A stretch of DNA of 50,185 bases from the IMG/VR virus record IMGVR_UViG_3300045988_141000; one strand, given 5' to 3'. A program made the translations under genes and the position numbers. Origin of the DNA: a virus. The notes under the pieces were generated by a model, which was not told the DNA's origin, searched no databases, and worked only from the letters and a program-made list of their open reading frames with translations. Numbering within the stretch: position 1 is the first letter of the stretch; the number at the start of each line of letters is the position of its first letter. This document shows, piece by piece, positions 6,191 to 26,636 of this stretch.

Positions 6191-6265
6191 ATTTAATATG
6201 AATGCAAAAAGACTCACGGTTGTCGAATCATCCGTGAGCAGGGTACGTACACATAACTTTATCAC

Positions 6266-6286
6266 ACCGCCTTCGGGCGGTTTTTT
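6266..6286 (+). terminator. rho-independent-type hairpin (ACCGCC-TTCG-GGCGGT + T6)
   Basis: Perfect 6-bp GC-rich stem, tetraloop, T6; sits 4 nt before ATG 6290 with no upstream + strand gene to terminate. Confidence 0.5.
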
Positions 6287-6289
6287 CAT

Positions 6290-6547
6290 ATGTGGAATTT
6301 GATTGTCCAGGCGCTGAAAGATGCGCTGAAGGAAAAGGTGACTGAAATGACGAAAGAAGAAGTGAAGGAGTGGCTCGACAAGCTCGGCGTCAAGGTCGAG
6401 GAAGTGACCGACGATCTCATCGCCAAGGTAGAGGCTCAGAAGGCTCTGCTCGATGCGGAGACGCGCCGGAAGACTAGACTCTTCTGGGGCCCGGTTGGTT
6501 TTCTGGCTGGGGTTCTCTGCACGTGGCTGTACAACATCCTCTTCTGA
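6290..6547 (+). CDS. small tail-anchored membrane protein, unknown function
   Basis: 85 aa; charged helical N-terminal part (KEEVKEWLDKLGVKVEEV) and one C-terminal hydrophobic helix LFWGPVGFLAGVLCTWLYNILF. Confidence 0.5.
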   Translation: MWNLIVQALKDALKEKVTEMTKEEVKEWLDKLGVKVEEVTDDLIAKVEAQKALLDAETRRKTRLFWGPVGFLAGVLCTWLYNILF

Positions 6548-6612
6548 GGATAGATGCAACGAGCTGTGAGAATCTGCGCGTTGCGACTCAGAGCATGCTA
6601 CTGTGTGCTCAT

Positions 6613-6642
6613 GGCCGGGGGACTGTCCCTCGGCCTTTTTTT
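6613..6642 (+). terminator. rho-independent terminator
   Basis: GGCCGGGGG-ACTGT-CCCTCGGCC (9 bp incl. one G-T) followed by T7. Confidence 0.7.
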
Positions 6643-6655
6643 ATAAGGAAAGCCA

Positions 6656-7909
6656 TTGTTTTATTACGGCTTCATTAACGACCAGAGCATCTGCACTGGC
6701 ACATACGGTTTCCCGACAGAGGTAACCATTCCTAACTACATCTACATCGGAACGACAGACGACAAGACCGTCATCGGGAAGAAGTGGACTGGCAACGGCT
6801 GGGTCGAAGTGATCTATTACTTCTACGCACAGCTCAACGAAAAGGACCTCTGCATCGGCGTGCAGGAGTATCCGACCGAAGTGATCGACGCGCGTTTGAT
6901 TCGAATCGAAACGCTCGACGAGTCTCTGATTGGGTTCTGGTACGACCGCACGGATTCGACCTTCAAGCCTGCGCCGATCCGTGTGCTCGCGGATCACTCC
7001 ACCGACGTTGTGAACTATCGCAACGAAGACCGTTGGCTTTCGGATGTGCTTGACGAAAAGGCGAACAGCCTTACCATCTACAGCAAGACCGAATCGGATG
7101 CTCGTTTTGCCCTCAAGGGCGAAGGTGGTTCTGGTGGAACGCCGGGCGCTGACGGCGCTGATGGTTTGAGCGCTTACGAGGTGGCTGTGGCGAATGGCTT
7201 CATTGGCAGCGAGGTTGAATGGCTTGCGAGCCTTGTTGGTGAACCTGGCCTGCCTGGCAAGGACGGCGTTGATGGCAAGAACGGCATCGACGGTGCTCGC
7301 GGTGAGCAGGGCCTCCCGGGCAAGGATGGTCTTCCCGGTGCTGAAGGTGCGCCCGGTAAGGACGGCGCTCCTGGTAAGGATGGACTTCCTGGTCGAGATG
7401 GCGAACGCGGTCCGCAGGGCTATCCGGGTGCCGATGGTCGCGATGGCACGAATGGCCGAGATGGTCAGGACTTCGGCGGCTCTGTAGCGTCTGACGTGAT
7501 TCGCCTAAACGGTACTCAGGCGCTCTTCAAAACGTCGTCCATGATGACGCTCGCGACGAACGGCCTTGAGACGATGATTGCCGGTTCGAAAATCTACTCG
7601 AAGACGGCCATCAGCGTTTCGTCGGACGTTCGGCTTAAGGAAGGAATTGCGAAGGTCGATGCCGACCGAGCGATTGAGTTCATTCGCAAGCTCCCGGTCG
7701 TGACTTACTCCTACATTGGCGAGGAAGACGGTCAGAGGCACATGGGGCTCATTGCGCAGCAGGTCCAGAATGCGGACCCGCAGATTGCGAAGCTCTTTGT
7801 CAGCAAGTCGTCTGAGGGCTATCTGGCGGTGGACTATGCCTCTCTGGTGTGTCCGTTGATCCTCGCGGTTCAGCGACTTTCGGATGAGGTTGAGCGACTT
7901 AAAAGCTAA
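6656..7909 (+). CDS. collagen-like tail fibre with C-terminal intramolecular chaperone (peptidase S74-type) domain
   Basis: TTG start; about 25 G-X-Y triplets (aa 195-270, nt 7238-7465); SAYEVAVANGFIGSEVEWLASL motif; C-terminus SSDVRLKEGI...HMGLIAQQVQ...VDYASLVCPLILAVQRLSDEVERLK resembles the S74 autoproteolytic chaperone domain. Confidence 0.75.
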   Translation: MFYYGFINDQSICTGTYGFPTEVTIPNYIYIGTTDDKTVIGKKWTGNGWVEVIYYFYAQLNEKDLCIGVQEYPTEVIDARLIRIETLDESLIGFWYDRTDSTFKPAPIRVLADHSTDVVNYRNEDRWLSDVLDEKANSLTIYSKTESDARFALKGEGGSGGTPGADGADGLSAYEVAVANGFIGSEVEWLASLVGEPGLPGKDGVDGKNGIDGARGEQGLPGKDGLPGAEGAPGKDGAPGKDGLPGRDGERGPQGYPGADGRDGTNGRDGQDFGGSVASDVIRLNGTQALFKTSSMMTLATNGLETMIAGSKIYSKTAISVSSDVRLKEGIAKVDADRAIEFIRKLPVVTYSYIGEEDGQRHMGLIAQQVQNADPQIAKLFVSKSSEGYLAVDYASLVCPLILAVQRLSDEVERLKS

Positions 7910-7928
7910 GTCTTAAAGCTCCATAAAG

Positions 7929-7957
7929 GGGGACGGGAAACCGTCCCCTTTTTTTTT
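7929..7957 (+). terminator. rho-independent terminator
   Basis: GGGGACGG-GAAA-CCGTCCCC followed by T9. Confidence 0.85.
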
Positions 7958-8047
7958 ACGCCTGCGATGCCTCCGGGCGTGCCAGAACTGGTGCTTTTCG
8001 AAGTCGTTGCATATGGTGGAAGTGAAGAAAATCCAAGGAGGCGATCT

Positions 8048-8509
8048 ATGGAAAAAGGGTTTGTGCAGACGTTCATCGACTACATGTCGTTGCTCGTACC
8101 TGCTAAAGGGGAGGCGTATCTGATGGTCGTTTCAGGGGCTGTCGGAAGCGCACTGGCTTGGGCGCTAGGAGGGATTGACCTGCAGTTGCAGTGGCTGTTG
8201 ATGTTCGTCGCCGTGGACTACGTGACGGGGACCATCGCTGCAGGAAAGACCGGCGAGTGGAACAGCCGTGTCGGCTTTCGAGGGCTTTTCAAAAAGGTTT
8301 TCATTTTCGTCGTCGTTGCGCTGTCGCATGGGCTTGATGTCATCACAGGCACCGAGATGCTACGCAACGCTGCCATTGTGGCTTACGCCGTGAATGAGCT
8401 CGGCAGCACGCTTGAGAATCTCGACCGCCTTGGCTTCGGCGGCATGATCCCAGGCTTTCTGCATCGAGCGATTAAGGAAATTAAAAGTAGGGAGGTTGTC
8501 AAAAAATGA
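8048..8509 (+). CDS. holin (phage_holin_4_1 / toxin-secretion holin type)
   Basis: ATG 8048 with AAGGAGG 6 nt upstream; multiple TM helices; VAVDYVTGTIAAGKTGEWNSRVGFRGLFKK...NELGSTLENL matches the family pattern; overlaps endolysin start (ATGA). Confidence 0.75.
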   Translation: MEKGFVQTFIDYMSLLVPAKGEAYLMVVSGAVGSALAWALGGIDLQLQWLLMFVAVDYVTGTIAAGKTGEWNSRVGFRGLFKKVFIFVVVALSHGLDVITGTEMLRNAAIVAYAVNELGSTLENLDRLGFGGMIPGFLHRAIKEIKSREVVKK

Positions 8510-9051
8510 GTAAGAAACTGACTATCGTTCTGGACCCTGGGCACGGCGGGACCGATCCGGGGGCTGTGAATGGTCGCTACAAAGAGTCCGAGGCGACCTT
8601 GGGTATCGCAAACAAAATTGCGGACAAACTAAAGGCGAAAGGGCATCGCGTTGTGCTCACTCGAACGAAGGATCAGGCGCTTCTGCTTCAACAGCGATGC
8701 GATATTTCGAACGCAGCCAAGGTGGACGCGTTTATTTCGATCCATTGCAATAGTGCCGAGAACAAGGACGCAAGCGGAATTGAGACGTTCAAATATCCGG
8801 GGGTCGGAGGCGTGACGAAACGCCTTGCTGAAAACATCCAGAACGGTCTAGCTTCAAACTTTCCTGAAGAAAAAGACCGAGGTGTCAAGGAGGCGAAGTA
8901 CTACGTTCTGAAGCGCACGAACGCACCGGCCGCACTGGTGGAGGTTGGCTTCATCTCACACGATCCGACAGCCGAGAAATTGTTCAGGTTCAGCTACCAA
9001 GACAAGCTCGCACGAGTAATTGCCGAGGGAGTTGAAAAAACTTTTTCTTGA
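8506..9051 (+). CDS. N-acetylmuramoyl-L-alanine amidase endolysin (Amidase_3 type)
   Basis: LDPGHGGTDPGAV, ISIHCNS, GIETF, VEVGFISH motifs. Confidence 0.85.
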   Translation: MSKKLTIVLDPGHGGTDPGAVNGRYKESEATLGIANKIADKLKAKGHRVVLTRTKDQALLLQQRCDISNAAKVDAFISIHCNSAENKDASGIETFKYPGVGGVTKRLAENIQNGLASNFPEEKDRGVKEAKYYVLKRTNAPAALVEVGFISHDPTAEKLFRFSYQDKLARVIAEGVEKTFS

Positions 9052-9109
9052 GCCGAATTTCAAAAATTCTTGTGACCTATAAGGGTTTACGATATACTAA
9101 TTAGGCATG

Positions 9110-9344
9110 CAGAGAATTACGCGGGAAGTGACGCGTAAGTGACACGAGAACACGAAAACCGCGTCACACCGGGCTTTGTCCGACTAATCAAGTTACTGTT
9201 GTAGTAAATTCTGTAGCGTCCTACAAGACACGAGAAAAGCCCCTGAAACCTACGTACGGCGCGGTTTCTGGGGCTTTTTAACTTTCAGAGAATTACGGGA
9301 AAACGCCCTGTTTTAAAGTGCGTAAGTGACACGTAAGTTACACG
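9110..9344 (+). repeat. attP-like region: two repeat clusters flanking a hairpin (candidate integrase arm-type sites)
   Basis: CAGAGAATTACG at 9110 and 9286; tandem 11-bp-period sites G(G/T)AAGT(G/T)AC(G/A)CG at 9124, 9135, 9322, 9333, all same orientation; adjacent to the integrase 3-prime end. Confidence 0.5.
9238..9279 (+). terminator. strong hairpin + T5 between the two repeat clusters
   Basis: AGCCCCTGAAACC / GGTTTCTGGGGCT, 12 of 13 bp paired, 12-nt loop, followed by TTTTT. Confidence 0.7.
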
Positions 9345-9395
9345 ACACGCCTAGAAAAAAGCCTTTCGGCTTGACTTTTCCAGTTCACTGAATTG

Positions 9396-10499
9396 TCACA
9401 CAACGTTCACTTGTAATTTGTCGATTGCGTCGATCAGGTCGGTAACGTCCTTGTGCGTATACAACTCTGTCACGTTCGAATTCGAGTGGCCGACGATCCT
9501 TTTCAGGACCACTGAGTTTGACGATACGCCGCAAGAATCCATCAGAGAAACGAACGTATGTCGGAGCGCATGAGGCGTGTGCGAGACGCCCAGGCTCTCC
9601 ATATACGGGTCGAAAAAGTGCTTCTTGTACTGGTCGTACTTAATAGGCTTGCCGTTCGCGTTTTCGATCAGGTGCTCGCCATCGAGGCGCTTTGACAGGA
9701 TCGGTGCAAGCTCTCGGTGGATCGGCACGATCCGGTCTGCGTTTTCGGTCTTTGTCCCGCGCACGTGGATGATGCGCTGCGCAAGGTCCACGTCTTCAGT
9801 CTTGACCCCGAGGAGCTCTCCTATCCGCATGCCGGTGTAAAGCATGATGAGCACAGTGTCAGCCAGCCGCAGTTCCGCGTAAGACTTCTTGCCAGTAGGG
9901 AATTGCACTGCGAAGTCTTGCGAGCCAAATACAGCGCCAAGCTCCTCTGCCGTGAAGAATTTTTCCTTCGCGGCCTTTTTCTTTTTGGGCGGTGTGATCA
10001 CCAGGAACTGCGAGTAGTCTTTCGTGACGATGTCGTTCTCGATGCAGTACTTGAACGCGTTTTTGAAGATCGATTTCACCTTGCCCTGACTCTCCTCCGA
10101 CATGTGATTCATGCCGTCGAGGATGTCCTGCATGTGGACCTTCTTGATGTCGGCCATCTGCATGTCGTAGAGCGGGGCGCAGCGCTTGTAGGCTGACCTG
10201 AGCCCGGCGGCGCTGCTCGGGTACTTCTTGAAGTGCGGCGGCGTCCAGATGTCCCAGACCTCAGCAAAGGTGAGCGTCTTTCTTGTGAGGTCGATTGGGT
10301 TCTGGTGGTACTCGGCCAAAGCGATCATCGCTTCTTTTCGGCTTGCGTAGTATCCAAGCGTGGACGTGAGCTGCTTTGCCTTTCCCGTCTCTTCGTTGAT
10401 CTCCCATCCGGTTGTGATTCGTACCCAGAAGGGCCGTCGGCGATTGCCGCTTAATTTTGAAATGTTTCCATAGCCGTTTGGCGCTTTAATTGTCATCAC
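9396..10499 (-). CDS. int: tyrosine integrase with N-terminal arm-type (AP2-like) DNA-binding domain
   Basis: GNRRRPFWVRIT...ETGKAKQ...GYYASRKEA arm-binding-type N-terminus; catalytic-type motifs YTGMRIGELLGV, HALRHTF, GHSNSNVTELYTH. Confidence 0.9.
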   Translation of the reverse strand: MMTIKAPNGYGNISKLSGNRRRPFWVRITTGWEINEETGKAKQLTSTLGYYASRKEAMIALAEYHQNPIDLTRKTLTFAEVWDIWTPPHFKKYPSSAAGLRSAYKRCAPLYDMQMADIKKVHMQDILDGMNHMSEESQGKVKSIFKNAFKYCIENDIVTKDYSQFLVITPPKKKKAAKEKFFTAEELGAVFGSQDFAVQFPTGKKSYAELRLADTVLIMLYTGMRIGELLGVKTEDVDLAQRIIHVRGTKTENADRIVPIHRELAPILSKRLDGEHLIENANGKPIKYDQYKKHFFDPYMESLGVSHTPHALRHTFVSLMDSCGVSSNSVVLKRIVGHSNSNVTELYTHKDVTDLIDAIDKLQVNVV

Positions 10500-10809
10500 C
10501 TTCTTTGAGGTGCTTGGTTTGATACTCCTTCAAGAAGTTCTCCATTCCAATGCGCTCGGTTTTCGATAGCTGCTTGAGGAAATCCGTCTGAACTGGCAGG
10601 CCTATCAGCAACGCAGGATTCACTCTCAGTTCGACGGCCATATCCCTGAGGATGTTTCGCTTGATGTTCGTGACCTTTCCGCTTTCCCATTTTTGGACCG
10701 CAGCGGCCTGCACACCAAGTCGCTCACCGAGTTCCGCCTGCGTCAGATTTCGAAGCATCCTCGCGCGTTTGATGATGTAGCCTATTTCTTTGTCGGATAA
10801 ATACTCCAT
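10486..10809 (-). CDS. XRE-family HTH repressor (CI-like) of module A
   Basis: ARMLRNLTQAELGERLGVQAAAVQKWESG HTH_3 pattern; 14-nt overlap with integrase start; divergent from Cro-like genes. Confidence 0.8.
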   Translation of the reverse strand: MEYLSDKEIGYIIKRARMLRNLTQAELGERLGVQAAAVQKWESGKVTNIKRNILRDMAVELRVNPALLIGLPVQTDFLKQLSKTERIGMENFLKEYQTKHLKEGDDN

Positions 10810-10835
10810 TAAACTCTCTCCCTTTGCTGTTATAA

Positions 10836-10867
10836 ATATCTAATTTAGATATATATCTAATTTAGAT
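10836..10867. promoter_or_regulatory. two tandem operators (ATATCTAATTTAGAT x2, 17-bp period) in AT-rich divergent control region
   Basis: ATCTA-N3-TAGAT inverted repeats at 10838-10850 and 10855-10867, 28 nt upstream of the repressor start. Confidence 0.6.
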
Positions 10868-11039
10868 CATTTAATTTATCAAAGCAAGAGAAACGATTAA
10901 CTTCCAAAAATTCACTATTGAACTCAATTGTCTTATTTCGTACTATTTTTTTGAAAGGCAGTGAGAGGCACCGTGCGATCATGCGCGATTTTTTTTAACC
11001 GCAACTGTCTAAAAAAGATGAAAAAGGAGATGTTTTCCA

Positions 11040-11225
11040 TTGAGAAACCTAACGGTGAACGATGTCGCTAAGGCGCTCAATAAATCGCCTCAGTACATCA
11101 GAATCTGCTTACAAAAGGGTTTGCTCCCGTTTGGTGCGGCCGCAAAAATGCCGCATTCCGGGCAGTGGACTTACGTAATTTTTCCGAAGAAATTCAAGGA
11201 ATATGTCGGCGATGAAGCCGTTTGA
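11040..11225 (+). CDS. small HTH protein (excisionase/Cro-like)
   Basis: TTG start with AGGAG 10 nt upstream; LTVNDVAKALNKSPQYIRICLQKGLLPF resembles MerR/excisionase-type HTH. Confidence 0.5.
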   Translation: MRNLTVNDVAKALNKSPQYIRICLQKGLLPFGAAAKMPHSGQWTYVIFPKKFKEYVGDEAV

Positions 11226-11433
11226 GAGAACTGCGTTGAAAAAGGCACGCAGGGAGGCAGGGTTCACGCAGGCAGAGCTGGCCGTGCTTGTCGGTTGCGG
11301 ACAGCAAACAGTCTCAAAACATGAGAGCGGAGTAGCGACACCGGCACACTTCAAGACGTTGCGAGCGTATGAGGATGTGCTCGGTGTTCCGGCTTGCGAG
11401 CTCTTTCCAGATGTTTTTGAGGAGGGGGCATGA
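11203..11433 (+). CDS. XRE-family HTH protein (Cro/antirepressor-like)
   Basis: LKKARREAGFTQAELAVLVGCGQQTVSKHESG; start may be the second ATG at 11212. Confidence 0.65.
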   Translation: MSAMKPFERTALKKARREAGFTQAELAVLVGCGQQTVSKHESGVATPAHFKTLRAYEDVLGVPACELFPDVFEEGA

Positions 11434-11500
11434 AAAATGCCCCGCCGTGACAGTTCGGCGAGGCTATCGAATGAAATGAGGGGAGGAATTTATCTCTAGT

Positions 11501-12001
11501 ATGACATCCCCAGATGAAAAATCAATAAAGCCTAGCGCGTCGGGCGTAAAGCACCATTTCAGCGTGTCGGTTGCCGTCGAGGTCGGCGTCAATGCCGCCG
11601 TTGTCCTTGAGAACATTGCGTTCTGGGTGCGGGCGAACCGCCGAGCCGGACGCCACCACCATGACGGGAAACATTGGACCTATGGGAGCACCCGGCACTT
11701 CGCCGAGCTTTTCGACTACCTGACAGAAAAGCAGGTGAGAGGGGCTATGGACAAGTTGATAACCTGTGGATATGTGGAAACAGGGAACTTCAACCGATCG
11801 GCATATGACCGGACCAGGTGGTTCACGCTGACCGAAAAAGGCGAGCGCGCGACCCAGGAGCGGCAGTCCGAAAAGCCGACAAAGGCAAAAGGTGCAGCCG
11901 GCAATGGGCGACCTATACCAGATAAAAACAAGAAATCGAAAACGGGATATATGACAGACTCAGCGGCGGGCGATTATCGTCGCGATCCTTTCGATTTTTG
12001 A
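11501..12001 (+). CDS. putative replication initiator / replisome organiser (winged-helix)
   Basis: AAVVLENIAFWV...HWTYGSTRHFAELFDYLTEKQVRGAMDKLITCGYV...RTRWFTLTEKG pattern seen in phage/plasmid wHTH initiators; directly precedes a DnaC-like loader. Confidence 0.45.
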   Translation: MTSPDEKSIKPSASGVKHHFSVSVAVEVGVNAAVVLENIAFWVRANRRAGRHHHDGKHWTYGSTRHFAELFDYLTEKQVRGAMDKLITCGYVETGNFNRSAYDRTRWFTLTEKGERATQERQSEKPTKAKGAAGNGRPIPDKNKKSKTGYMTDSAAGDYRRDPFDF

Positions 12002-12019
12002 GGGAAGGAATGAGAATGA

Positions 12020-12808
12020 ATGGCTTTGAGGGAAGTCGATCTTTCACACATTCGCAACGGGCGCACGAAGCCCGCAATCTGCACCAGGCATGGTGCATTT
12101 ACGGACACTGGCGTAACGATCCGCGACAGGATCATCTGGATGGGCTGTGCGCAATGTGCGCTTGAGGCCCGCGACCGTGAGAATGCACGACTCGCAAGAG
12201 AGGCAACGAAGCGCAGTGAGGCTGTGAAGGCTTGTCGCATCATTGGTGACGCAGCCATCCCGGAGCGATACCGGGGTCGCACGCTTGAAGGCTACGTCGT
12301 GTCGAATGCGGGCCAACGTGCTGCGCTTGAGGCTTCAAGGGAGTACTTGAAGACCATTACGCAGGCCGATGACAGTGGGGCGAACATGCTTTTCTACGGC
12401 ACGTCCGGGACTGGCAAAACGCACCTTGCTGTCGGTGTCGCGCAGGCGTTGATCGAGCACGGAGGCTCGGCACTCTATACGAGGGCGTCACGCATCGCTC
12501 AGAGAATCAAAGAGACATACGGTCGCCAGTCTGACAGGACTGAGCGCGAGGTTTATGAGTCCTTTGCTACGCCCGATCTTCTTGTCATCGACGAGGTCGG
12601 CAGACAGTTCGGAACGGATGCCGAGAAGCTGATGCTTTTCGAGGTTATCAACTCACGCTACGAGGCGCTGAAGGCAACGATCGTCATCAGCAACCTTTCT
12701 GGCGAGGCGTTGATTGACTATCTTGGCGAGGCGGCAATGGACCGGCTTCGAGAAGGAGGGCGTTCGGTGCTCTTTGACTGGACGAGCTACCGGCGCCGAG
12801 GATATTGA
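12020..12808 (+). CDS. DnaC/IstB-like AAA+ helicase loader with N-terminal zinc ribbon (copy A)
   Basis: Walker A GTSGTGKTHLA, Walker B LLVIDEVG; same architecture as ORF 25824..26636. Confidence 0.8.
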   Translation: MALREVDLSHIRNGRTKPAICTRHGAFTDTGVTIRDRIIWMGCAQCALEARDRENARLAREATKRSEAVKACRIIGDAAIPERYRGRTLEGYVVSNAGQRAALEASREYLKTITQADDSGANMLFYGTSGTGKTHLAVGVAQALIEHGGSALYTRASRIAQRIKETYGRQSDRTEREVYESFATPDLLVIDEVGRQFGTDAEKLMLFEVINSRYEALKATIVISNLSGEALIDYLGEAAMDRLREGGRSVLFDWTSYRRRGY

Positions 12809-12815
12809 AATACAT

Positions 12816-12840
12816 GAGACCCCTTTGCGGGTCTCTTTTT
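12816..12840 (+). terminator. rho-independent terminator
   Basis: GAGACCC-CTTTGC-GGGTCTC followed by T5; 8 nt after the loader stop. Confidence 0.8.
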
Positions 12841-12854
12841 GCATGGAGGCTTCG

Positions 12855-13265
12855 ATGAACTGGAAGTTTTTTGTGCCGCTCGGGCTTTTCGCTGCGGGCG
12901 CTGTCGGCGGGTACATGTACGCGTCCCACGAATACGGCGAGGAGATCGCTAACATCAAACTTGAGGCGGCGATCATTCGCGCCAATGACGGGAGGAAGTC
13001 CTATGAAAAACTGGTTGCGGCGCAAAACGCGCTTGATGCTTCTCGGCGCGATGCTGTGCGCCTCTCTGACGACCTTGACCGGGTGCGGCGTGCCTACAAA
13101 GATCGCGAGCGACGAGCCTCTGCCGACGCCTGCCGAGTGGAACGAGCCGCAATCGCCAGGTGCGAGGGACTTCTCAGAGAAAGCACAGAGCTTCTTGCAG
13201 AGGGTTCAGACCTACTTCAAAGAAACGCCGGAGTTCACGATGCAGCCGTGAGCCTGAACCAATGA
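12855..13265 (+). CDS. Rz: i-spanin (Rz-like)
   Basis: ATG 12855 with GGAGG 5 nt upstream; N-terminal TM helix WKFFVPLGLFAAGAVGGYMY then Ala/Arg/Glu-rich coiled coil; contains an embedded lipoprotein ORF in the +1 frame. Confidence 0.75.
   Translation: MNWKFFVPLGLFAAGAVGGYMYASHEYGEEIANIKLEAAIIRANDGRKSYEKLVAAQNALDASRRDAVRLSDDLDRVRRAYKDRERRASADACRVERAAIARCEGLLRESTELLAEGSDLLQRNAGVHDAAVSLNQ
13003..13251 (+). CDS. Rz1: o-spanin (Rz1-like lipoprotein) embedded in Rz
   Basis: ATG 13003 with GGAGGA RBS; signal peptide + lipobox LTGC (Cys28), Pro-rich mature part; entirely inside the Rz reading frame. Confidence 0.75.
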   Translation: MKNWLRRKTRLMLLGAMLCASLTTLTGCGVPTKIASDEPLPTPAEWNEPQSPGARDFSEKAQSFLQRVQTYFKETPEFTMQP

Positions 13266-13267
13266 AA

Positions 13268-13291
13268 AGCGCCGGTGGATGTCCCGGCGCT
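13268..13291. terminator. hairpin between convergent genes
   Basis: AGCGCCGG-N8-CCGGCGCT perfect 8-bp stem; A4 before, weak T-rich after. Confidence 0.5.
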
Positions 13292-13300
13292 CTGGCTTAA

Positions 13301-13558
13301 TTATTTTCTACGAGATCTCTTAGTTCTCTTTTTAGATGATGAACTGGCGCGTGTCTGGCCGCCATAGACGTCTGGGTCGCAGATTTTCTGGCTTCTGCTG
13401 AACTTGCCGTTATTGCACAGAAACCTTCCATCAACGCAGCGATCGACACCTCCCATCCGGCCTGAACAGGGGGCTTTTGCTGCCATGGCTTGGGATGAAA
13501 AGAAAGTCGTTGCTAGAAAGGTGGCAACAACGAAAACAGAAAATGTTTTTGCGCTCAT
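13301..13558 (-). CDS. small secreted Cys-rich protein with basic tail (moron)
   Basis: Signal peptide ...SSQAMA-AK; four Cys in [30 protein letters not shown]; C-terminus [14 protein letters not shown]. Confidence 0.6.
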
Positions 13559-13576
13559 AAAGCTAAAATCAAGAGA

Positions 13577-14263
13577 TTACTTCTTGTCAATCGAAATGTC
13601 GTACTTGACTTCGGTGGGTTTGTGAGCCTTTACAGCGCTGGCAATGGCGTCGACATTAGCAACAGCCCCCAGAGCAATCAGCGGCGTGACGATTTCTTCG
13701 GGTTTCTTGTTGAGCTTTGTGGCAATTGCCTTCACGAGTGCAGGCTCATCAGTCGTACCGTCTGCTTTCAAGTGCTGGTTGCGCAAGCCTGCCCACAGGC
13801 GAACAATTTCTTGCTCATCCTTGGTTGTCGTGCGATCAGCGGCCATGACATCGTCCCAAGTCCACTTCTGTGAGCCATTGAATCCCTTGCCGTCCGTCGC
13901 ATAGTTGCATCGAGCGACGGCGATCTGTGCGGCCTTGATGCCGATCACGCGGTCAATAAGCTGAACAGAGGCTATGTCCGTAAGATTATGTTCGGCAAAA
14001 TACTTGGCAGCACCCATGCAGGTAGCGGCCAGGTTGGTTGAATTGACGGTTTGTGCCGGCTCGTTCAGACCGACGACAGCGTACGTAATGGTGCGAGTTC
14101 CTGCCTTAGTAGCTTTTTCTTCAGTGATGACGGCATAAGGGAGAAGTTCGAAGCTGACCTGTTCGACCGTTTTTTGCGCGGTTTTTTCTTCTTCTGACGT
14201 CTTTTCGACACAACCAGCCAAGACAGCGGCGGCGAGAGCGAGGGCAATGGCGATCTTTTTCAT
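13577..14263 (-). CDS. lipoprotein, unknown function (moron)
   Basis: ATG 14263 (GGAGA RBS) gives MKKIAIALALAAAVLAGC lipobox; the upstream part of track ORF 13577..14428 overlaps the next gene and is rejected. Confidence 0.7.
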   Translation of the reverse strand: MKKIAIALALAAAVLAGCVEKTSEEEKTAQKTVEQVSFELLPYAVITEEKATKAGTRTITYAVVGLNEPAQTVNSTNLAATCMGAAKYFAEHNLTDIASVQLIDRVIGIKAAQIAVARCNYATDGKGFNGSQKWTWDDVMAADRTTTKDEQEIVRLWAGLRNQHLKADGTTDEPALVKAIATKLNKKPEEIVTPLIALGAVANVDAIASAVKAHKPTEVKYDISIDKK

Positions 14264-14346
14264 AAGTTCTCCAGGAGGAATAGGACAGCGAAACGACAAA
14301 AGCGCGGAGGTGATCCGCGCGTAGATTTTCAAATTGTAACTTACTT

Positions 14347-14544
14347 TTAGGGAATGGCCTCGAGGCGGGCGGCAATTTCGTCGCGTTCGTCGCAAAGCGC
14401 CAGGAACGCCTTGACAAGGCTCCGCCATTCTACTTTTTTCCCGGCCGCGTAAGCGTCAGCAGCCTCGTCGCTCTTGAGATCGATGGCGAGTTCGAGCTGT
14501 TCGAGGGCTTTTTCGAGTTCGCGGCGGCTGGTGTTGTTCGTCAT
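14347..14544 (-). CDS. small helical protein, unknown function
   Basis: 65-aa ORF downstream of integrase B, same strand; no motif recognised. Confidence 0.45.
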   Translation of the reverse strand: MTNNTSRRELEKALEQLELAIDLKSDEAADAYAAGKKVEWRSLVKAFLALCDERDEIAARLEAIP

Positions 14545-14641: not shown

Positions 14642-15802
14642 TCATGTCGGCAGGATCGCGTCTGCCCACTGCTGCATGACCGGGCGGCGTTGCTCAAGGA
14701 GGTCTGAGCGTTGGTAGGCCTGCACGACCTTGTCGCCCTTTACGTGAGCCAGAGCGCGCTCGGCAAGGGCCTCATGGATGAAGTTTTCCTCGCACCAGTC
14801 GCGGAACGTTGATCTGAAGCCGTGCATTGTGAAAGACTCGCCTGTCGCCTTCCGGATAAAAGCCCGAGGGCTGTCGATAACCATCTCTTTGTCTGATCGT
14901 GGCGCAGGAAAGACGAGCTCAGACTTTCGTTCGCAGCGTTCTAGGACTGCCAGTGCCTGACGTGAGAGCGGGACGCGGTGCTCAAGACCGCACTTCATCC
15001 TAGGGGCCGGGATCGTCCACGTCGCGCGCTGGATGTCGATCTCGTCCCATCGTGCGCAAAGGAACTCTTGCACGCGTGTAGCAGTGAGGATGCCGAAAAG
15101 GACGGCGCGAGACACGACAGAAGTCTTTTTCGCCGTCTCCGGTGCAAAACTTTTCAGAATTTCAAGAGGCATTGCCTCATGGTGCTTGACTTCGTGGACT
15201 TTTGAGATCGGCGGCAGGAAGAAAGCTAGCCCGTCTTTCCAAGTAGCAGGGTTTGTTTGTATGAGTTCTTCAGCGATTGCTTGAGAGAAGAGACTTTCGA
15301 GGCGGCCTCGTAGGCGGCTGGCTGTCTCTGGCTTTTCTGTCCAGATCGGTTTGAGGACTTCGAGGATGTCTCCTCGCGTGATGTCCTTTACGCGAAGAGC
15401 ACCGAGAACCGGGACGGCATAGGTTTCGATTGTGGACACCCACTGCGATGCGTGCTTTTCGTTTTTCCAGCGCTTGACGTTTTGAATGGTCGCGATTGCA
15501 CCAGGATAGAACTCTTTGAAAGTGATGCTTTCTCGGGCGTCTGCTTCTGAAAGCTTTGATGATGACGGATCGATGCCGTCGGCCGCCATTGAGAGAATTT
15601 TTGCTGCCCGCGCTTTTGCAGACGTGATTGAAATGCGCGAGGCGCCACCGATCGACAAGTCTTTCCGTGTCCCCGCGAATCGGTAGCGGACAACCCACTG
15701 CCGGGAAGACTCAGAACGCACGAGAAGCATCAACCCACCGCCGAGCGAGTACCGGCCGGGTGGCAGCGTCATGAAATTTTTCGACGTGACTTGATCTTTC
15801 AT
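14642..15802 (-). CDS. int: P4-type tyrosine integrase (DUF4102-like N-terminus)
   Basis: ATG 15802; LPPGRYSLGGGLMLLVRSESSRQWVVRYRFAGTRKDLSIGG N-terminus typical of P4-like integrases; HGFRSTFRDW and LAHVKGDKVVQAYQRSD catalytic-type motifs. Confidence 0.9.
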   Translation of the reverse strand: MKDQVTSKNFMTLPPGRYSLGGGLMLLVRSESSRQWVVRYRFAGTRKDLSIGGASRISITSAKARAAKILSMAADGIDPSSSKLSEADARESITFKEFYPGAIATIQNVKRWKNEKHASQWVSTIETYAVPVLGALRVKDITRGDILEVLKPIWTEKPETASRLRGRLESLFSQAIAEELIQTNPATWKDGLAFFLPPISKVHEVKHHEAMPLEILKSFAPETAKKTSVVSRAVLFGILTATRVQEFLCARWDEIDIQRATWTIPAPRMKCGLEHRVPLSRQALAVLERCERKSELVFPAPRSDKEMVIDSPRAFIRKATGESFTMHGFRSTFRDWCEENFIHEALAERALAHVKGDKVVQAYQRSDLLEQRRPVMQQWADAILPT

Positions 15803-15829
15803 ATCTACCTTTGGGCGGTGAATCGCGTA

Positions 15830-15876
15830 AGACCCACCAGAGACCCACCGAAAAAAGACCCACCAAAAGACCCACC
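15830..15876 (+). repeat. four direct copies of AGACCCACC (candidate arm-type / regulatory sites)
   Basis: Copies at 15830, 15841, 15856, 15868 (spacing 11, 15, 12), starting 28 nt upstream of the integrase B start. Confidence 0.85.
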
Positions 15877-15977
15877 TCCACAGTCTATCGCATGGCGTGA
15901 TATGTCGCAATCTGGCGGATTTTGGCGGAATCGACGAAAGTAGAATTCTGGAATGTGCCTGGTACTCAAGGTGAATA

Positions 15978-16019: not shown

Positions 16020-16039
16020 TGGCGGAAGGGGAGGAATTC
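16020..16039 (-). other. tRNA 3-prime-end-like segment, candidate attP core for integrase B
   Basis: Minus strand reads GAAT-TCCTC-CCCTTCC-G-CCA = end of T-loop, T-stem 3-prime strand (5), acceptor strand (7), discriminator, CCA; followed 9 nt later by the terminator; no complete tRNA present. Confidence 0.4.
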
Positions 16040-16083
16040 ATGAATTAAGGCGTAGCAACGGTTGTAGAGGCTTTAATGTCAAA

Positions 16084-16104
16084 AGACCCACCAAAAGACC
16101 CACC
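16084..16104 (+). repeat. two further copies of AAAAGACCCACC
   Basis: Copies of AGACCCACC at 16084 and 16096 (12-bp period), same orientation as the 15830-15876 cluster, on the other side of the tRNA-like core. Confidence 0.85.
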
Positions 16105-16120: not shown

Positions 16121-16432
16121 CTAACGGTTTTTTTTGCTTGTGGCGTTGCGAGATTCTCTGGCTACGCGACTCAGGAACTCGCGTAGAGCTGCGATGGGGT
16201 ACGCAGTAATGCCTGGATAGGCTACAGGGTCCGGGAAGCCGCTTTCCAATGCCCAACGTCGAAGTGTCGGCTCTGATGTATCAAAGGCGGCGATGACTTC
16301 ATCTCGCGTTAGAAATGCATAGTCAGGAACTGCCGGATCAAAGAGCATCTCGCGAAAACGCATGCCGTCGCGAATCTTGTTGGACGCCGTCATCATTTTT
16401 TCATCATCCTGCTGTTTGTTCAAGTCTTTCAT
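16121..16432 (-). CDS. alpA: AlpA-family HTH regulator / excisionase
   Basis: LTRDEVIAAFDTSEPTLRRWALESGFPDPV...AALREFL matches the AlpA/Xis pattern; true start may be the MM at 16396 (the first 29 nt overlap the upstream gene). Confidence 0.7.
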   Translation of the reverse strand: MKDLNKQQDDEKMMTASNKIRDGMRFREMLFDPAVPDYAFLTRDEVIAAFDTSEPTLRRWALESGFPDPVAYPGITAYPIAALREFLSRVARESRNATSKKNR

Positions 16433-23943: not shown

Positions 23944-24603
23944 TTAGTAGGTGTTGAATGATCCGCAAACGACGCCGACGACCTCTAAACCGTGTTGCCT
24001 GGAGTGAAGGATTGGATAGTCTGGGTTCAGCGGCTTCAGATCAAAGAGTTCTCGACCTTGATCGTCGTATCCGGTGACGACGTATTTCTTGAAAGTCGTC
24101 TCTGTGAGAATGCCAGACGTAGAACGTGCGATGACGAAGTCTCCAGGTTTTGGCAGCCTATTGGGGTCGACGAAGAGCAGTTGTCCTTCTTGGAAATTTG
24201 GCGACATGGAGTCGCCTCTTACGCGAAGAGCAAAAGTTTTCTCCGGCAATGTTTCTGGGACGATCGCCCATTCATCGTATTGTTCTTGTCCGTTGTCTGT
24301 AAGCATTCCCGCCTGCACATATGAAAGGATTGGTATGCGCTTGAAACGTATCGTGCTTACTTGGGGGTTGCCGAGTTCTGCGTTTTCCGTGTCAAGTGTT
24401 CCTGGGGGAAGGCCAAGCTTATCTTCAATCTCTCTAGCGATTCGTGCTCCAAAAGACTTCGTTCCTCTGATCATGTCATTGATCTGCTGCGGAGCTTTGC
24501 CAAGTATCTCGGCCAATCGAGACCGCGAGCCATTCAGCTCTGCCAGACGACTCAGGTTTGCAATGCGTATCCGCTTCAGGGTGTCTTTTTCATTCGTACT
24601 CAT
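23944..24603 (-). CDS. cI: CI-type repressor (HTH + LexA/S24 peptidase-like C-terminal domain)
   Basis: ATG 24603 with GGGAGG RBS; N-terminal HTH (SRLAEILGKAPQQINDMIRG); C-terminal FALRVRGDSMSPNF...GDFVIAR S24 pattern. Confidence 0.85.
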   Translation of the reverse strand: MSTNEKDTLKRIRIANLSRLAELNGSRSRLAEILGKAPQQINDMIRGTKSFGARIAREIEDKLGLPPGTLDTENAELGNPQVSTIRFKRIPILSYVQAGMLTDNGQEQYDEWAIVPETLPEKTFALRVRGDSMSPNFQEGQLLFVDPNRLPKPGDFVIARSTSGILTETTFKKYVVTGYDDQGRELFDLKPLNPDYPILHSRQHGLEVVGVVCGSFNTY

Positions 24604-24730
24604 AAGAAGTACCTCCCTTCTGCAATAGTAGTGTGGAAGGTGTATGCGCGGCAACATGTTCGGCAACCAACAAAAGCGGCGAAAATGTTGTATTATGGTT
24701 TAACACCAAAACAACACCGAGAGGTCTGAG
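24604..24730. promoter_or_regulatory. cI-cro divergent control region
   Basis: -10-like TATTAT at 24691-24696; motifs TAACACC/CAACACC (24701-24718) shared with the leader at 23734-23831. Confidence 0.45.
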
Positions 24731-24952
24731 ATGACGCCTCGAGCGCTCGAATATTTCAAATCCCTAAAGCCAATCGAAAAGAAGGCCTTGTGCCAAAAAG
24801 TAGGCATTTCTGTCCGATGGCTTCACAACTGCATGTATGTCCCGTCGAAGAATTTCAGCCCGGAAGTCGCTGAGAAGATCGAGATGGTTTCTTGTCGAAA
24901 AGTGACGCGCGAAGACCTGCGCCCAGATATTGACTGGTCGCTTATTCGCTAA
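24731..24952 (+). CDS. cro: Cro / YdaS-family HTH regulator
   Basis: ALCQKVGISVRWLHNC...VTREDLRPDIDW resembles YdaS/Cro-type proteins; divergent from cI. Confidence 0.65.
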   Translation: MTPRALEYFKSLKPIEKKALCQKVGISVRWLHNCMYVPSKNFSPEVAEKIEMVSCRKVTREDLRPDIDWSLIR

Positions 24953-24961
24953 GGGGACGCC

Positions 24962-25813
24962 ATGAGCTTCAAGGTTTCCGCACTGGCATGGATGGTTCCG
25001 GTTGAGAAGTCAACCGAACGTCTTGTGCTCCTCGCTCTTGCCGACCGGGCCGATGACGAAGGCAAGAACTGCTATCCGTCCGTCGAGACCATTTGCGGCA
25101 TGACGCAGATGAATCGAAAGACGGTATTTGCTGTCATTTCGAGACTTGCGGAACGTGGCGTTTTGTCAGTACGCAAGCGAGAGGTGCACAACTCGAATGA
25201 GTACCTTCTGCACATAGAGGATTGGCCCAAAAACGGAAGTACCGAAAACGGGACGACCCAAAAACGGGACAACCCAAAAACGGTACGTCAGTTGTCCCGA
25301 AAACGGGACGATGGTTGTACCGAAAACGGGACGACAGTAGTACCGAAAACGGGACACGAACCTATCAATGAACCTATCAATGAACCTATCAATAACCAAT
25401 CAATAACCAGTAGAGAAGACACGCCGCCAAAAGCCAGAGCCAAGAAAGGCGAAGCCTGGAAAAAGTGGATCAAGGTCGAAAAACCGGACGAAGTTCCTGA
25501 TGACCTCTGGAAGCAATTCGGAGAGATTCGCGCCCTGAAAAAGCGGGCTTTGACTGAAAGTGCGCTTGAGCTTCTTCGATCCGAAGGGGAGAAGGCTCAC
25601 ATGACGCTGCTTCAGGTCATCGAGCATTGCTGCGCCAATGCCTGGGCAGGCTTCAGAGCCTCCTGGTTGACGAGGACGAGCGGTAGCACCTACCGAAAGC
25701 CTCAGAACGTCACCCAGACGGCTGAATACCGAGAACGACTTCAGGCCTGCTGCCGAGGTGAAGGCAGAACTGAAAAACTCGCCGACGACGGCGTAACGAT
25801 CATCGTGGATTGA
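24962..25813 (+). CDS. replication initiator (lambda O-like role) with N-terminal winged-helix domain
   Basis: ERLVLLALADRADDEGKNCYPSVETICGMTQMNRKTVFAVISRLAERGVLS HTH_36-like; internal iteron array; followed by a DnaC-like loader. Confidence 0.7.
   Translation: MSFKVSALAWMVPVEKSTERLVLLALADRADDEGKNCYPSVETICGMTQMNRKTVFAVISRLAERGVLSVRKREVHNSNEYLLHIEDWPKNGSTENGTTQKRDNPKTVRQLSRKRDDGCTENGTTVVPKTGHEPINEPINEPINNQSITSREDTPPKARAKKGEAWKKWIKVEKPDEVPDDLWKQFGEIRALKKRALTESALELLRSEGEKAHMTLLQVIEHCCANAWAGFRASWLTRTSGSTYRKPQNVTQTAEYRERLQACCRGEGRTEKLADDGVTIIVD
25226..25408 (+). repeat. origin-like iteron array inside the initiator gene
   Basis: Seven copies of CC(G/C)AAAACGG(G/T/A)A(C/G) at 25226, 25242, 25257, 25273, 25297, 25320, 25343, then GAACCTATCAAT x3 (25358-25393) and AACCAATCAATAACC. 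Confidence 0.75.
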
Positions 25814-25823
25814 GGAAAACAAC

Positions 25824-26636
25824 ATGAAAAAAGCAGAAGGCTTGGTCGGCTTGTTGGGCTTTGCCGAGGGGGAAGAGGAGCGGGTATGCCCAGAGCATGG
25901 GCGGTATATCTCGCACCTGACCTACCTGAAGGGAGAGCTCAAGAATGCGAGCGGATGTCCGAAGTGCCGAGCGATCCAGTTGCAGAAGCGGCAGGAAGAC
26001 GAAGAGCGCGAACGAAAGGAACATGAAGAACTTGAAAAGCGCCGCGCGTATGAGCAGACGCTGGACCGAACGGCCATCCCGACCAAATACCGATCCAGGA
26101 CGCTCGCATCCTTCAGAACCGATGGGAACGACCAGAAAGCGAAGGTGCTCAAGATCGCCGAGTCCTACATCACAAAGTTCGACGCGCTTCGCCAGTCCGG
26201 CATAGGAATGGTTTTTATCGGCGAATGCGGGACTGGCAAGACCCATCTGGCGTGTGCGGTGCTTCAGGAACTCTTGAGCAAGTGCGCCGGCATCTACACG
26301 ACGGCACATGAGATGGGGCAGAGGGTTGCCGATTCCTGGGGCTGCCGAGAGACGGGTAAGACGACCGCAGACGTGAAAAGAGCCTACAAAACCTGTCCGC
26401 TGCTTGTCGTCGATGAGGTCGCAAAGGAAGACGCGAAGCCGATCACAAAGGAAGTCCTCTCAGAGGTCTTGTACGCCCGCTACGACACTCAACTTCCGAC
26501 CATCTGGATCACCAACGCCGATCCGGCGCTGCTGAAGACCGCGATAGGAGAGCAGGAGTACGACCGGCTCAAAGAAACATGCAAGTTCATCCGGTTCTCG
26601 TGGCCGAGTATGCGGAAGAACGACATCGATTTTTAA
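25824..26636 (+). CDS. DnaC/IstB-like AAA+ helicase loader with N-terminal zinc ribbon (copy B)
   Basis: CPEHGRY...CPKC, Walker A GECGTGKTHLA, Walker B LLVVDEVA. Confidence 0.8.
   Translation: MKKAEGLVGLLGFAEGEEERVCPEHGRYISHLTYLKGELKNASGCPKCRAIQLQKRQEDEERERKEHEELEKRRAYEQTLDRTAIPTKYRSRTLASFRTDGNDQKAKVLKIAESYITKFDALRQSGIGMVFIGECGTGKTHLACAVLQELLSKCAGIYTTAHEMGQRVADSWGCRETGKTTADVKRAYKTCPLLVVDEVAKEDAKPITKEVLSEVLYARYDTQLPTIWITNADPALLKTAIGEQEYDRLKETCKFIRFSWPSMRKNDIDF

Follow-up and report, generated by a model that had tools for sequence, protein, structure and literature searches.

Two complete early-control regions in a hybrid Sutterella myovirus, one of them between the endolysin and spanin genes

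Why does a temperate phage have an integrase, a repressor and a pair of replication-type genes between its endolysin and its spanins when each of these functions is encoded a second time in the same genome? The question is raised by the viral record IMGVR_UViG_3300045988_141000 from IMG/VR, a stretch of 50,185 nucleotides that was analysed whole and is called the window below (prefix w for its coordinates where they are used on other genomes). Its module A (Table 1) comprises six genes, and its module B, together with the P4-type integrase B (intB), supplies the second set. A sequence-only reading had described module A as a clean, self-contained 3.8-kb unit (9052-12854) and had considered a satellite-like hitch-hiker, one phage with two programmes or an old capture, and a chimeric assembly. 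We find that the window represents a temperate myovirus of Sutterella wadsworthensis with a circular genome, a stable hybrid that carries two complete regions for early control. Assembly error, recent insertion and satellite do not account for the module, which is an old part of a mosaic genome and is maintained by selection. Module A is the core of an older exchangeable block of ~6.4 kb, not a discrete insert in the lysis cassette. As to what it does, we lean towards the view that it is a functional second control, recombination and helicase-loading unit of a hybrid temperate phage, with its role unproven.

A stable hybrid genome with an exchangeable block

The two ends of the window share 55 nt, consistent with a circular assembly. 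Its gene order is found identically in the genome of the isolate S. wadsworthensis 2_1_59BFAA (L016; L numbers denote the compared loci) and again in about 22 IMG/VR contigs and 18 metagenome contigs; ENA, Logan, IMG/VR and JGI all contribute contigs with it. The identical endolysin protein has entries in 174 blocks of the assembly collection, and in 10 of 10 places among the matches listed there the order runs endolysin, integrase A (intA), XRE repressor, rep, DnaC, Rz and then intB. Because this order recurs in an isolate genome and in several dozen independently assembled metagenome and virome contigs, a misassembly is excluded and the chimeric reading is refuted. A megablast search of 7900-13400 against the GenBank phages gave no match, and an exact look-up of the IntA protein found it not on record. 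The prophage is common in human-gut metagenomes and, being present in a cultured S. wadsworthensis strain, is directly testable.

Relatives that lack the module define how far the exchangeable DNA extends. Two of them, L081 and L082, belong to the same lineage as the window (87-91% nucleotide identity in the tail genes, 92% amino acid identity in IntB), and their homology to it is interrupted only between w6510 and w12933. By blastn, L081, L082, L084, L086 and L088 follow the window at ~90% nucleotide identity up to w6498-6559 and then break; homology with the module-less relatives is lost at ~w6510, at the end of an 85-aa open reading frame (ORF), and regained at ~w12933, inside Rz and past its transmembrane domain (TMD). 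These breakpoints give a block of ~6.4 kb (6511-12932). The interval has two alleles, one of 1.24 kb with holin and lysozyme and one of 6.4 kb with the S74 fibre, holin, amidase, the phage attachment site attP(A), module A and the 5′ end of Rz. In L081 and L082 it holds a holin, a Phage_lysozyme (PF00959), a 58-aa transmembrane (TM) ORF and Rz/Rz1, all contiguous and overlapping. Relatives with an uninterrupted holin-endolysin-Rz/Rz1 order, for which the sequence-only reading had proposed a search, do exist (L081, L082 and others), with a GH24 lysozyme as the endolysin. The linkage is strict: intA stands beside an Amidase_3 endolysin in every locus, and the module occurs in no GH24-lysozyme locus. 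Since lysis genes and module are so tightly linked, the picture of a 3.8-kb insert is too narrow; the holin, the endolysin and the S74 fibre travel with the module. Among the phages with an Amidase_3 endolysin no empty endolysin-Rz site was found. Around the module there are no convincing flanking direct repeats, only a 15-nt inverted match of 87% (9378-9392 and 12851-12865), and genome, IMG/VR and metagenome searches found no independent copy of it outside this phage context.

All six module-A genes are intact in 46-49 loci, with 7-17 alleles per gene and no pseudogenes. Pairwise dN/dS (ratio of nonsynonymous to synonymous substitution rates) is 0.05-0.2 for each of them in close and distant alleles alike, the same range as for intB and the fibre gene. 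By these measures both modules are intact and under purifying selection.

The nearest further relatives of IntA (52-63% identity) lie in low-GC prophages with the layout int, XRE <-> cro... (L012-L014, L017 Phascolarctobacterium, L113) and, where visible, with holin and Amidase_3 genes across attP. Identity falls to 36-41% in clostridial relatives, the 48 genome matches to IntA include no proteobacterium other than Sutterella, and the nearest relatives in cultured phages are those of Butyrivibrio phages at 35% (Butyrivibrio phage Arawn being the nearest). The module-A loader has its nearest cultured relatives in the Vibrio phages X29 and phi 2 (48.6% identity over the full length). With an integrase of Firmicutes type and a loader of Vibrio-phage type, module A is itself mosaic. 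Similar blocks occur in distant phages: L138 (GC 0.45) has S74 fibre, holin, amidase, int, XRE <-> hth17, cro, rep and DnaC at 53-90% amino acid identity, with an embedded Rz/Rz1 pair that begins at the DnaC stop codon; L136 (GC 0.40) has the unit after the holin and followed by a leftward operon; and L140 (GC 0.66), which shares a homologous P2-like tail module, has holin, int, HTH_17, cro, rep and DnaC at the matching place. At third codon positions the module genes have a GC content (GC3) of 0.56-0.74, the same as the backbone. We reject a recent transfer from a low-GC donor in view of this full amelioration and of the mosaic make-up of the module. Because the block recurs in distant phages and its GC3 matches the backbone, we regard it as an old, recurrent architecture and not a recent insertion, in line with the earlier preference for two programmes or an old capture over a recent integrase-mediated event.

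Table 1. Features of the window discussed in the text (coordinates in nucleotides of the window)
Feature	Position	Strand	Basis and remarks
Conserved 85-aa ORF, left flank of the exchangeable block	6290..6547	+	blastn vs L081, L082, L084, L086, L088
Collagen-repeat / Peptidase_S74 tail-fibre protein	6656..7909	+	Pfam Collagen 8.6e-16, Peptidase_S74 3.1e-14; first gene of variable block
Strong intrinsic terminator before holin	7925..7952	+	Terminator scan; -21.8 kcal/mol, z -3.7
Holin	8048..8509	+	Phage_holin_4_1 6.6e-32; phrog_199
Endolysin (N-acetylmuramoyl-L-alanine amidase)	8506..9051	+	Amidase_3 6.6e-52
Promoter-like site TTGTGA-17-TATACT, reading into attP(A)	9070..9098	+	Promoter scan, sigma-70-like
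attP(A) P-arm repeats, GTAAGTGACAC type	9127..9146		Conserved in L011, L112, L113
Putative attP(A) core, imperfect palindrome AGTTACTGTTGTAGTAAAT	9191..9209		Unique in window; 0 expected by chance
Bidirectional hairpin terminator, between attP(A) core and P′ arm	9235..9279		Inverted repeat I6; -25.9 kcal/mol, z -4.1
attP(A) P′-arm repeats, two tandem CGTAAGTGACA units	9320..9344		Conserved in all alleles
Tyrosine integrase A (intA)	9396..10499	-	Phage_integrase 2.4e-21; phrog_1 3.9e-53
XRE-family repressor A (XRE-A)	10486..10809	-	HTH_3 2e-10; 107 aa; overlaps intA start
Two 17-bp repeats, each with palindrome ATCTAATTTAGAT (putative operators)	10832..10867		Repeat scans
Small HTH_17/MerR-like protein, candidate excisionase	11040..11225	+	phrog_6058 3.9e-17; HTH_17 1.5e-3, below Pfam cut-off
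Cro-like XRE protein	11203..11433	+	HTH_3 5.9e-11; dN/dS ~0.1
Winged-helix initiator-like protein (repA)	11501..12001	+	phrog_11233 'replication initiation protein' 2.6e-35; phrog_6493 2.4e-14
DnaC/IstB-type helicase loader, Cys-rich N-terminal extension	12020..12808	+	IstB_IS21 6.6e-20; phrog_50 3.1e-68
Moderate intrinsic terminator after loader	12816..12835	+	Terminator scan; -12.6 kcal/mol, z -1.8
i-spanin Rz	12855..13265	+	TMD and coiled-coil sequence; right homology breakpoint ~12933, past TMD
o-spanin Rz1, embedded in +1 frame of Rz	13003..13251	+	Signal peptide, lipobox LTGC, Pro-rich mature part
P4-type integrase B (intB)	14642..15910	-	Arm-DNA-bind_3, Phage_int_M, Phage_integrase
attP(B) core	16021..16039		Identical to 3′ end of host tRNA-Ser(GGA)
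Module B: LexA-like CI (-), O-like initiator, DnaC-like loader	23944..26636		Profile and repeat searches

Several observations concern the block and its surroundings. The S74 fibre gene is missing at the matching position in L081 and stands upstream of the holin in L138, where its product is 61-68% identical. The 58-aa TM ORF of the module-less relatives (L081 7796-7972) lies between the GH24 lysozyme gene and Rz, overlaps the Rz start, has no counterpart in the window and may encode an antiholin or a lysis regulator. Cargo between Rz and intB (minus strand, 13301-14544 in the window) is variable, namely an 85-aa lipoprotein and a DUF4875 lipoprotein in the window, a 552-aa SNIPE/T5orf172 nuclease-like protein in L002, L008 and L081, and an unrelated 274-aa ORF in L004. 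Among the tail-fibre genes, the minus-strand glycosyltransferase at 5393-6559 (GT25 in the window) is swapped in nearly every relative (GT2, GT4, Gly_transf_sug, Caps_synth, DUF1796), and the site is probably a hot-spot for serotype-conversion cargo.

Integrase A, attP(A) and the integrase in use

The catalytic residues of IntA (R225, K250, H310, R313, H338 and Y347) are invariant across 20 homologues, its ORF is intact in 49 of 50 loci with a dN/dS of 0.05-0.19, and its PDB matches are XerA/XerC-like recombinases and an unnamed 'Int protein' (6en0/6emy/6emz). Residues 1-110 are strongly conserved among homologues and match no Pfam arm-binding model even at E<=1. Its description as an arm-type tyrosine integrase accordingly stands for the catalytic residues and profiles, with no arm-domain model to match its N-terminal part. 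The GTAAGTGACAC arm repeat occurs at 9135, 9322 and 9333, on both sides of the inverted-repeat core and beside intA, and the TTACTGTTRTAGTAA part of the core is invariant in 73 occurrences, including that of L113, whose integrase is 63% identical. In an integrated relative (L013) the order is int, arms, hairpin, core, host, and the phage-host junction sits at the position equivalent to the attP(A) core. Conservation of the arms, the core palindrome and the hairpin extends to L113 and even to alleles in which the dS of int has reached saturation. The att-like repeats seen in the letters were recovered by repeat scans, and attP(A) is intact as proposed, with P arm, core and P′ arms all present. 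Judged by this conservation, IntA, the Xis-like protein and attP(A) appear to form a complete recombination system under constraint.

The promoter-like site ahead of attP(A) keeps its -10 element in 7 of 7 aligned alleles, L113 included, and the stretch 9105-9279 may be a small transcript that would cover the P arm and the core, from this promoter to the hairpin ~175 nt downstream. Within 9070-9279 compensatory changes are confined to the terminator stem; in L113 they maintain the pairing of the hairpin. Rfam and tRNA scans of the attP(A) region found nothing there. In two lineages of sister phages a Cys-rich ORF of 211-214 aa is inserted next to attP(A) (L068 3601-4236, L072 3913-4557), at window-equivalent positions ~9052-9110, left of the P arm, in one and ~9345-9395, between P′ arm and intA, in the other. 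It matches nothing in Pfam or NCBIfam and resembles a mobile gene of the free-standing, homing-endonuclease type; attP(A) remains whole in both lineages.

Integration itself points to the other integrase. The intB gene adjoins host DNA in L002-L009 and L016, and attP(B) is placed between intB and an AlpA-like gene. Homology to the integrated prophages ends at w16039, within tRNA-Ser(GGA), whose 3′ end is supplied by the phage, and the tRNA gene spans the junction in L002, L003, L006 and L016. Because the host-flanked contigs break from the window at this point inside the tRNA gene, intB is the integrase at work, and all integrated copies have entered through it at tRNA-Ser(GGA). Arm-type repeats of attP(B), CAAAAGACCCAC, lie on either side of its core (15829-15876 and 16080-16104). 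The prophage of the sister lineage L081 sits at tRNA-Ser(GCT) instead.

The strongest rival to our reading takes the two attachment sites as bet-hedging: IntA and attP(A) would work where tRNA-Ser(GGA) is missing or already taken, or where the host is a different species, and module A would be the matching alternative programme. It draws on the same complete and constrained attP(A), whose P arm, core and P′ arms persist across alleles with saturated dS, on an integrase with all its catalytic residues and a low dN/dS, on the conserved Xis-like partner and on related integrases (57% identity) that do integrate prophages with an equal att layout; the integrated contigs sampled may, moreover, stem from few integration events. 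However, the isolate genome and the ENA/Logan, IMG/VR and JGI matches contain no contig with a split attP(A) or with host DNA beside intA. A search of IMG/VR with the hairpin 19-mer for attL or attR returned the same phage only, and the same 19-mer in the JGI and ENA metagenomes gave 18 phage copies with attP intact and four chance look-alikes of a terminator. Searching all fetched loci for the core pattern gave phage copies only, and none of the fetched host flanks contains an attB-like core. A switch by inversion or deletion, for which the phage would need a second core copy, was also considered and rejected, none being present within three mismatches. We regard this alternative as possible, at well under even chances.

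Repressor A, the rightward operon and the spanins

Module A is divided by a control region from which XRE-A and intA run leftward and four genes rightward. The co-oriented XRE gene and the two small helix-turn-helix (HTH) proteins are confirmed by the HTH_3 and phrog_6058 profiles, and the two palindromic operators were located as claimed, with ATCTAATTTAGAT at 10838-10850 and 10855-10867. XRE-A has no Peptidase_S24 autocleavage domain, HTH_3 being its only Pfam match. A putative rightward promoter (TTGAAC-17-TACTAT, 10918-10946) leads to the first rightward gene of the module through a leader with a weak terminator-like hairpin and T8 (10972-10996, plus strand), which at -7.3 kcal/mol is no better than shuffled sequences.

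XRE-A is 98-100% conserved in most loci, and alleles of 53-60% amino acid identity, heteroimmune-like, occur in L011 and L112. These discrete classes (~100% versus 53-60%) on otherwise similar backbones are what would be expected of immunity specificities and, along with the presence of A-type modules in other phages, would suit a reading of module A as immunity or exclusion cargo, in which XRE-A, perhaps with the initiator and the loader, represses superinfecting phages with A-type operators and IntA and attP(A) are merely carried along. This leaves the purifying selection on intA, rep and DnaC and the conservation of attP(A) unexplained, no PADLOC or other defence evidence points to it, none having been sought, and the other A-type phages, with a GC of 0.37-0.45 or 0.66, may have other hosts; we consider it improbable.

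Among the rightward genes, the candidate excisionase has homologues of 62-90% identity beside related integrases in L012-L014, L017, L136 and L138. Profile searches across 11040-12808, proposed in the sequence-only reading, place 11501-12808 in replication families. RepA was correctly called a winged-helix initiator-like protein, given its phrog_11233 match and a winged-HTH fold at residues 17-120 of its AlphaFold2 model (predicted local distance difference test score, pLDDT, ~90); Foldseek returned TubR, N-terminal domains of RepA_N, and MarR/PadR, every one with E >= 6e-3, and a PDB sequence search found nothing. The DnaC/IstB call agrees with IstB_IS21 and phrog_50, and the loader, with a dN/dS of ~0.05, has a Walker A motif GTSGTGKTH and an NCBIfam DnaC match of 1.1e-36, below the equivalog cut-off. 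The notion of self-contained replication fares less well: the initiator-like and loader genes are there, but no iteron array or recognisable origin, which leaves it unproven.

The duplication of functions in the same circle is borne out. CI-B is an S24/LexA-like repressor (Peptidase_S24, 1e-18), module B has an O-like initiator with iterons, and its DnaC-like protein is 36% identical to the module-A loader; the P4-type intB completes the set, and an AntA/ANT antirepressor gene lies at 16404-17153. The iterons at 25226-25408 are the only recognisable origin in the genome; they form three adjacent arrays within the O-like gene, with AAAACGGGAC-type units of 15-23 nt and GAACCTATCAAT repeated 4.4 times.

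As to lysis, the holin and endolysin calls are upheld by Phage_holin_4_1 and Amidase_3. The embedded Rz/Rz1 pair, too, is well founded in its TMD, lipobox and +1 embedding and in its post-endolysin homologues in relatives, with no family match in Pfam, PHROG or NCBIfam. From its sequence, Rz has an N-terminal TMD at residues ~4-24 and a coiled-coil stretch; in L081 and L083-L086 its homologues, 75-87% identical, come straight after holin, Phage_lysozyme and the small TM ORF, and the embedded Rz1 ORF is kept in L081 and L083. In the window, endolysin and Rz are separated by 3.8 kb and two terminators. The terminator after the endolysin is as strong as had been proposed (-25.9 kcal/mol, 9235-9279); the one closing the module, earlier called strong and placed at 12816-12840, is only moderate. 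Since another terminator, with an equivalent in L081 (6888-6912), also precedes the holin, the holin and endolysin genes are themselves terminator-bracketed. The spanins had been thought uncoupled from holin and endolysin and dependent on read-through from the module; read-through remains one route but need not be the only one, because, with terminators ahead of the holin too and a Q-like candidate gene after RusA (weak, phrog_79 1.2e-4), late antitermination is an equally good route to Rz. Just 3′ of the Q-like gene and 5′ of the terminase genes lies a match to abiF RNA (RF03085; 28192-28228, plus strand; Rfam 49.1 bits against a gathering score of 37).

We propose the following scheme. In a lysogen, XRE-A bound to the paired palindromes would autoregulate the leftward XRE-A/intA operon and silence the rightward operon of Xis-like, Cro-like, initiator-like and loader genes. 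Because XRE-A lacks a self-cleavage domain, its derepression must come from elsewhere, most plausibly from the SOS-sensitive module B, where cleavage of CI-B would release the leftward early operon and with it the AntA/ANT antirepressor. Once derepressed, the rightward operon would supply a second helicase-loading pair of initiator-like protein and loader, and read-through of the moderate terminator behind it may also yield Rz/Rz1. Spanins of the lambda type are active only once peptidoglycan is degraded, so that their early synthesis would in principle be harmless. A second route would be late, Q-type antiterminated transcription, which must pass the pre-holin terminator in any case and could continue to Rz/Rz1.

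Several points weigh against a functional second unit of this kind. The link from Ant to XRE-A is pure inference on our part, as is every regulatory step of the scheme, and the Q-like gene is weakly assigned. At 166 aa RepA is short, its fold matches are weak, and module A has no iteron, repeat array or recognisable origin (10780-12900). Action of IntA has not been seen, as attP(A) is never split in the isolate genome or in the ENA/Logan, IMG/VR and JGI contigs, and no attB or attL/attR of module A was found in IMG/VR, the JGI metagenomes or the fetched loci. Where alleles are very divergent, part of the low dN/dS could date from evolution in other phages, ahead of import; within the lineage, dS is 0.15-0.3 and dN/dS 0.13-0.19, with few substitutions behind them. 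The window lineage may have gained the block, or its module-less sisters may have lost it.

A minimal integrative-replicative hitch-hiker riding in a helper genome, the satellite-like option of the sequence-only reading, is very unlikely. Its int, repressor, divergent cro/xis, initiator and loader do resemble the left half of satellites such as phage-inducible chromosomal islands (PICIs) and Staphylococcus aureus pathogenicity islands (SaPIs). However, the module has never been met outside this phage context, alone or with flanking att repeats, the lineage shows no empty site and no flanking direct repeats, the boundaries towards module-less relatives fall in conserved genes and not at att sites, attP(A) is whole and not divided into attL and attR, and the module is co-inherited with the lysis genes at an ameliorated GC3. 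A non-functional relic, kept only through linkage to the needed holin and endolysin, would suit the strict Amidase_3 linkage and the unseen action of IntA, and it is hardly tenable against ~46-49 loci free of pseudogenes (7-17 alleles per gene), dN/dS values like those of intB and structural genes, and conserved non-coding attP elements and operators.

One phage with two programmes, or an old capture, fits the intact modules, the GC3 and the recurring layout best. The presence of two intact modules stands; the 'alternative lysogeny programme' is unproven, all integrated copies using intB at tRNA-Ser(GGA). More tentatively, and with rather little confidence, we suggest that the phage possesses two orthogonal functional lysogeny systems, each with its own helicase-loading pair, one built on the P4-type Int, the tRNA-Ser attP and the SOS-cleavable CI and the other on the Firmicutes-type Int, the complex attP and the non-cleavable XRE repressor; these would offer a choice of two integration sites or hosts and two induction signals, with the spanins wired to the second switch.

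Meaning and comparison with known systems

Should both modules work, this phage would offer a clear example from nature of circuits for lysogeny and replication that are redundant and orthogonal and are kept by selection in one genome, bearing on how mosaic phages take up foreign control modules, on host-range or attB bet-hedging and on the expression of spanins apart from holin and endolysin. For annotation, contiguity of the lysis cassette is an unsafe rule, and prophage or satellite finders keyed on 'integrase + repressor + replication' will mis-split the genome into two elements.

The closest likeness is to the junction of lysis, attP and lysogeny genes in Firmicutes-type phages (L113, L012, L013). 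In its canonical form this runs holin, Amidase_3 endolysin, attP, int, XRE repressor <-> cro, xis ... initiator, DnaC, and module A matches it in gene order and orientation, in the placement of attP between endolysin and int, in the order of arms, hairpin and core, and in integrase family (52-63% identity to Phascolarctobacterium-type prophages and 35-41% to Clostridia/Butyrivibrio phages). Unlike these, the phage of the window has a betaproteobacterial host, possesses a complete lambdoid module as well and integrates by another integrase; its early region A has only four genes, the spanins follow the loader, and the loader has its kin in Vibrio phages.

With the S-R-Rz/Rz1 cassette of lambda the window shares an o-spanin with a lipobox, embedded in an i-spanin with an N-terminal TMD, and its sister phages have the contiguous arrangement. 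It departs from lambda in the 3.8 kb and two terminators that split endolysin from Rz and in spanins that match no family model; in L138 the spanins are fused to the end of the replication operon. PICIs and SaPIs have the layout int, stl-like repressor <-> str/xis, pri-rep, and the compact int, the repressor, the divergent small HTH genes and the replication genes are shared with them. In contrast to such islands, 9396-12808 encodes only the integrase, three HTH proteins, the initiator-like protein and the loader, without packaging or capsid-redirection genes, and the module has no independent chromosomal copies or flanking att repeats, residing in and co-evolving with a phage genome.

In P2 and 186 the early region next to the tail genes is arranged attP, int, C <-> cox, B helicase loader, A. 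By layout, the likeness lies in a leftward int-repressor operon that faces a rightward Xis/Cro-like and loader operon after a P2-like tail module, which in the window comprises Baseplate_J, Tail_P2_I and GPW_gp25 and is also found in L140. The window differs in having lysis genes between tail genes and int and, in addition, a lambdoid CI/Cro/O/P/Q-like region; no kinship in sequence with int, C, cox, B or A of P2 was seen, no search aimed at it having been made. Phages with two integrases or two immunity regions, such as P22 with its immC and immI, resemble it in the duplication of lysogeny functions within one genome; literature searches on two integrases, two lysogeny modules and Sutterella prophages found no phage described with two complete int, attP, repressor, cro, initiator and loader sets. 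All the parts come from known families, and temperate phages are ordinarily mosaic. What is unusual is that a single widespread prophage stably keeps, under selection, two complete int/attP/repressor/cro/initiator/loader sets, and that its spanins are joined to the second switch physically and perhaps in transcription too.

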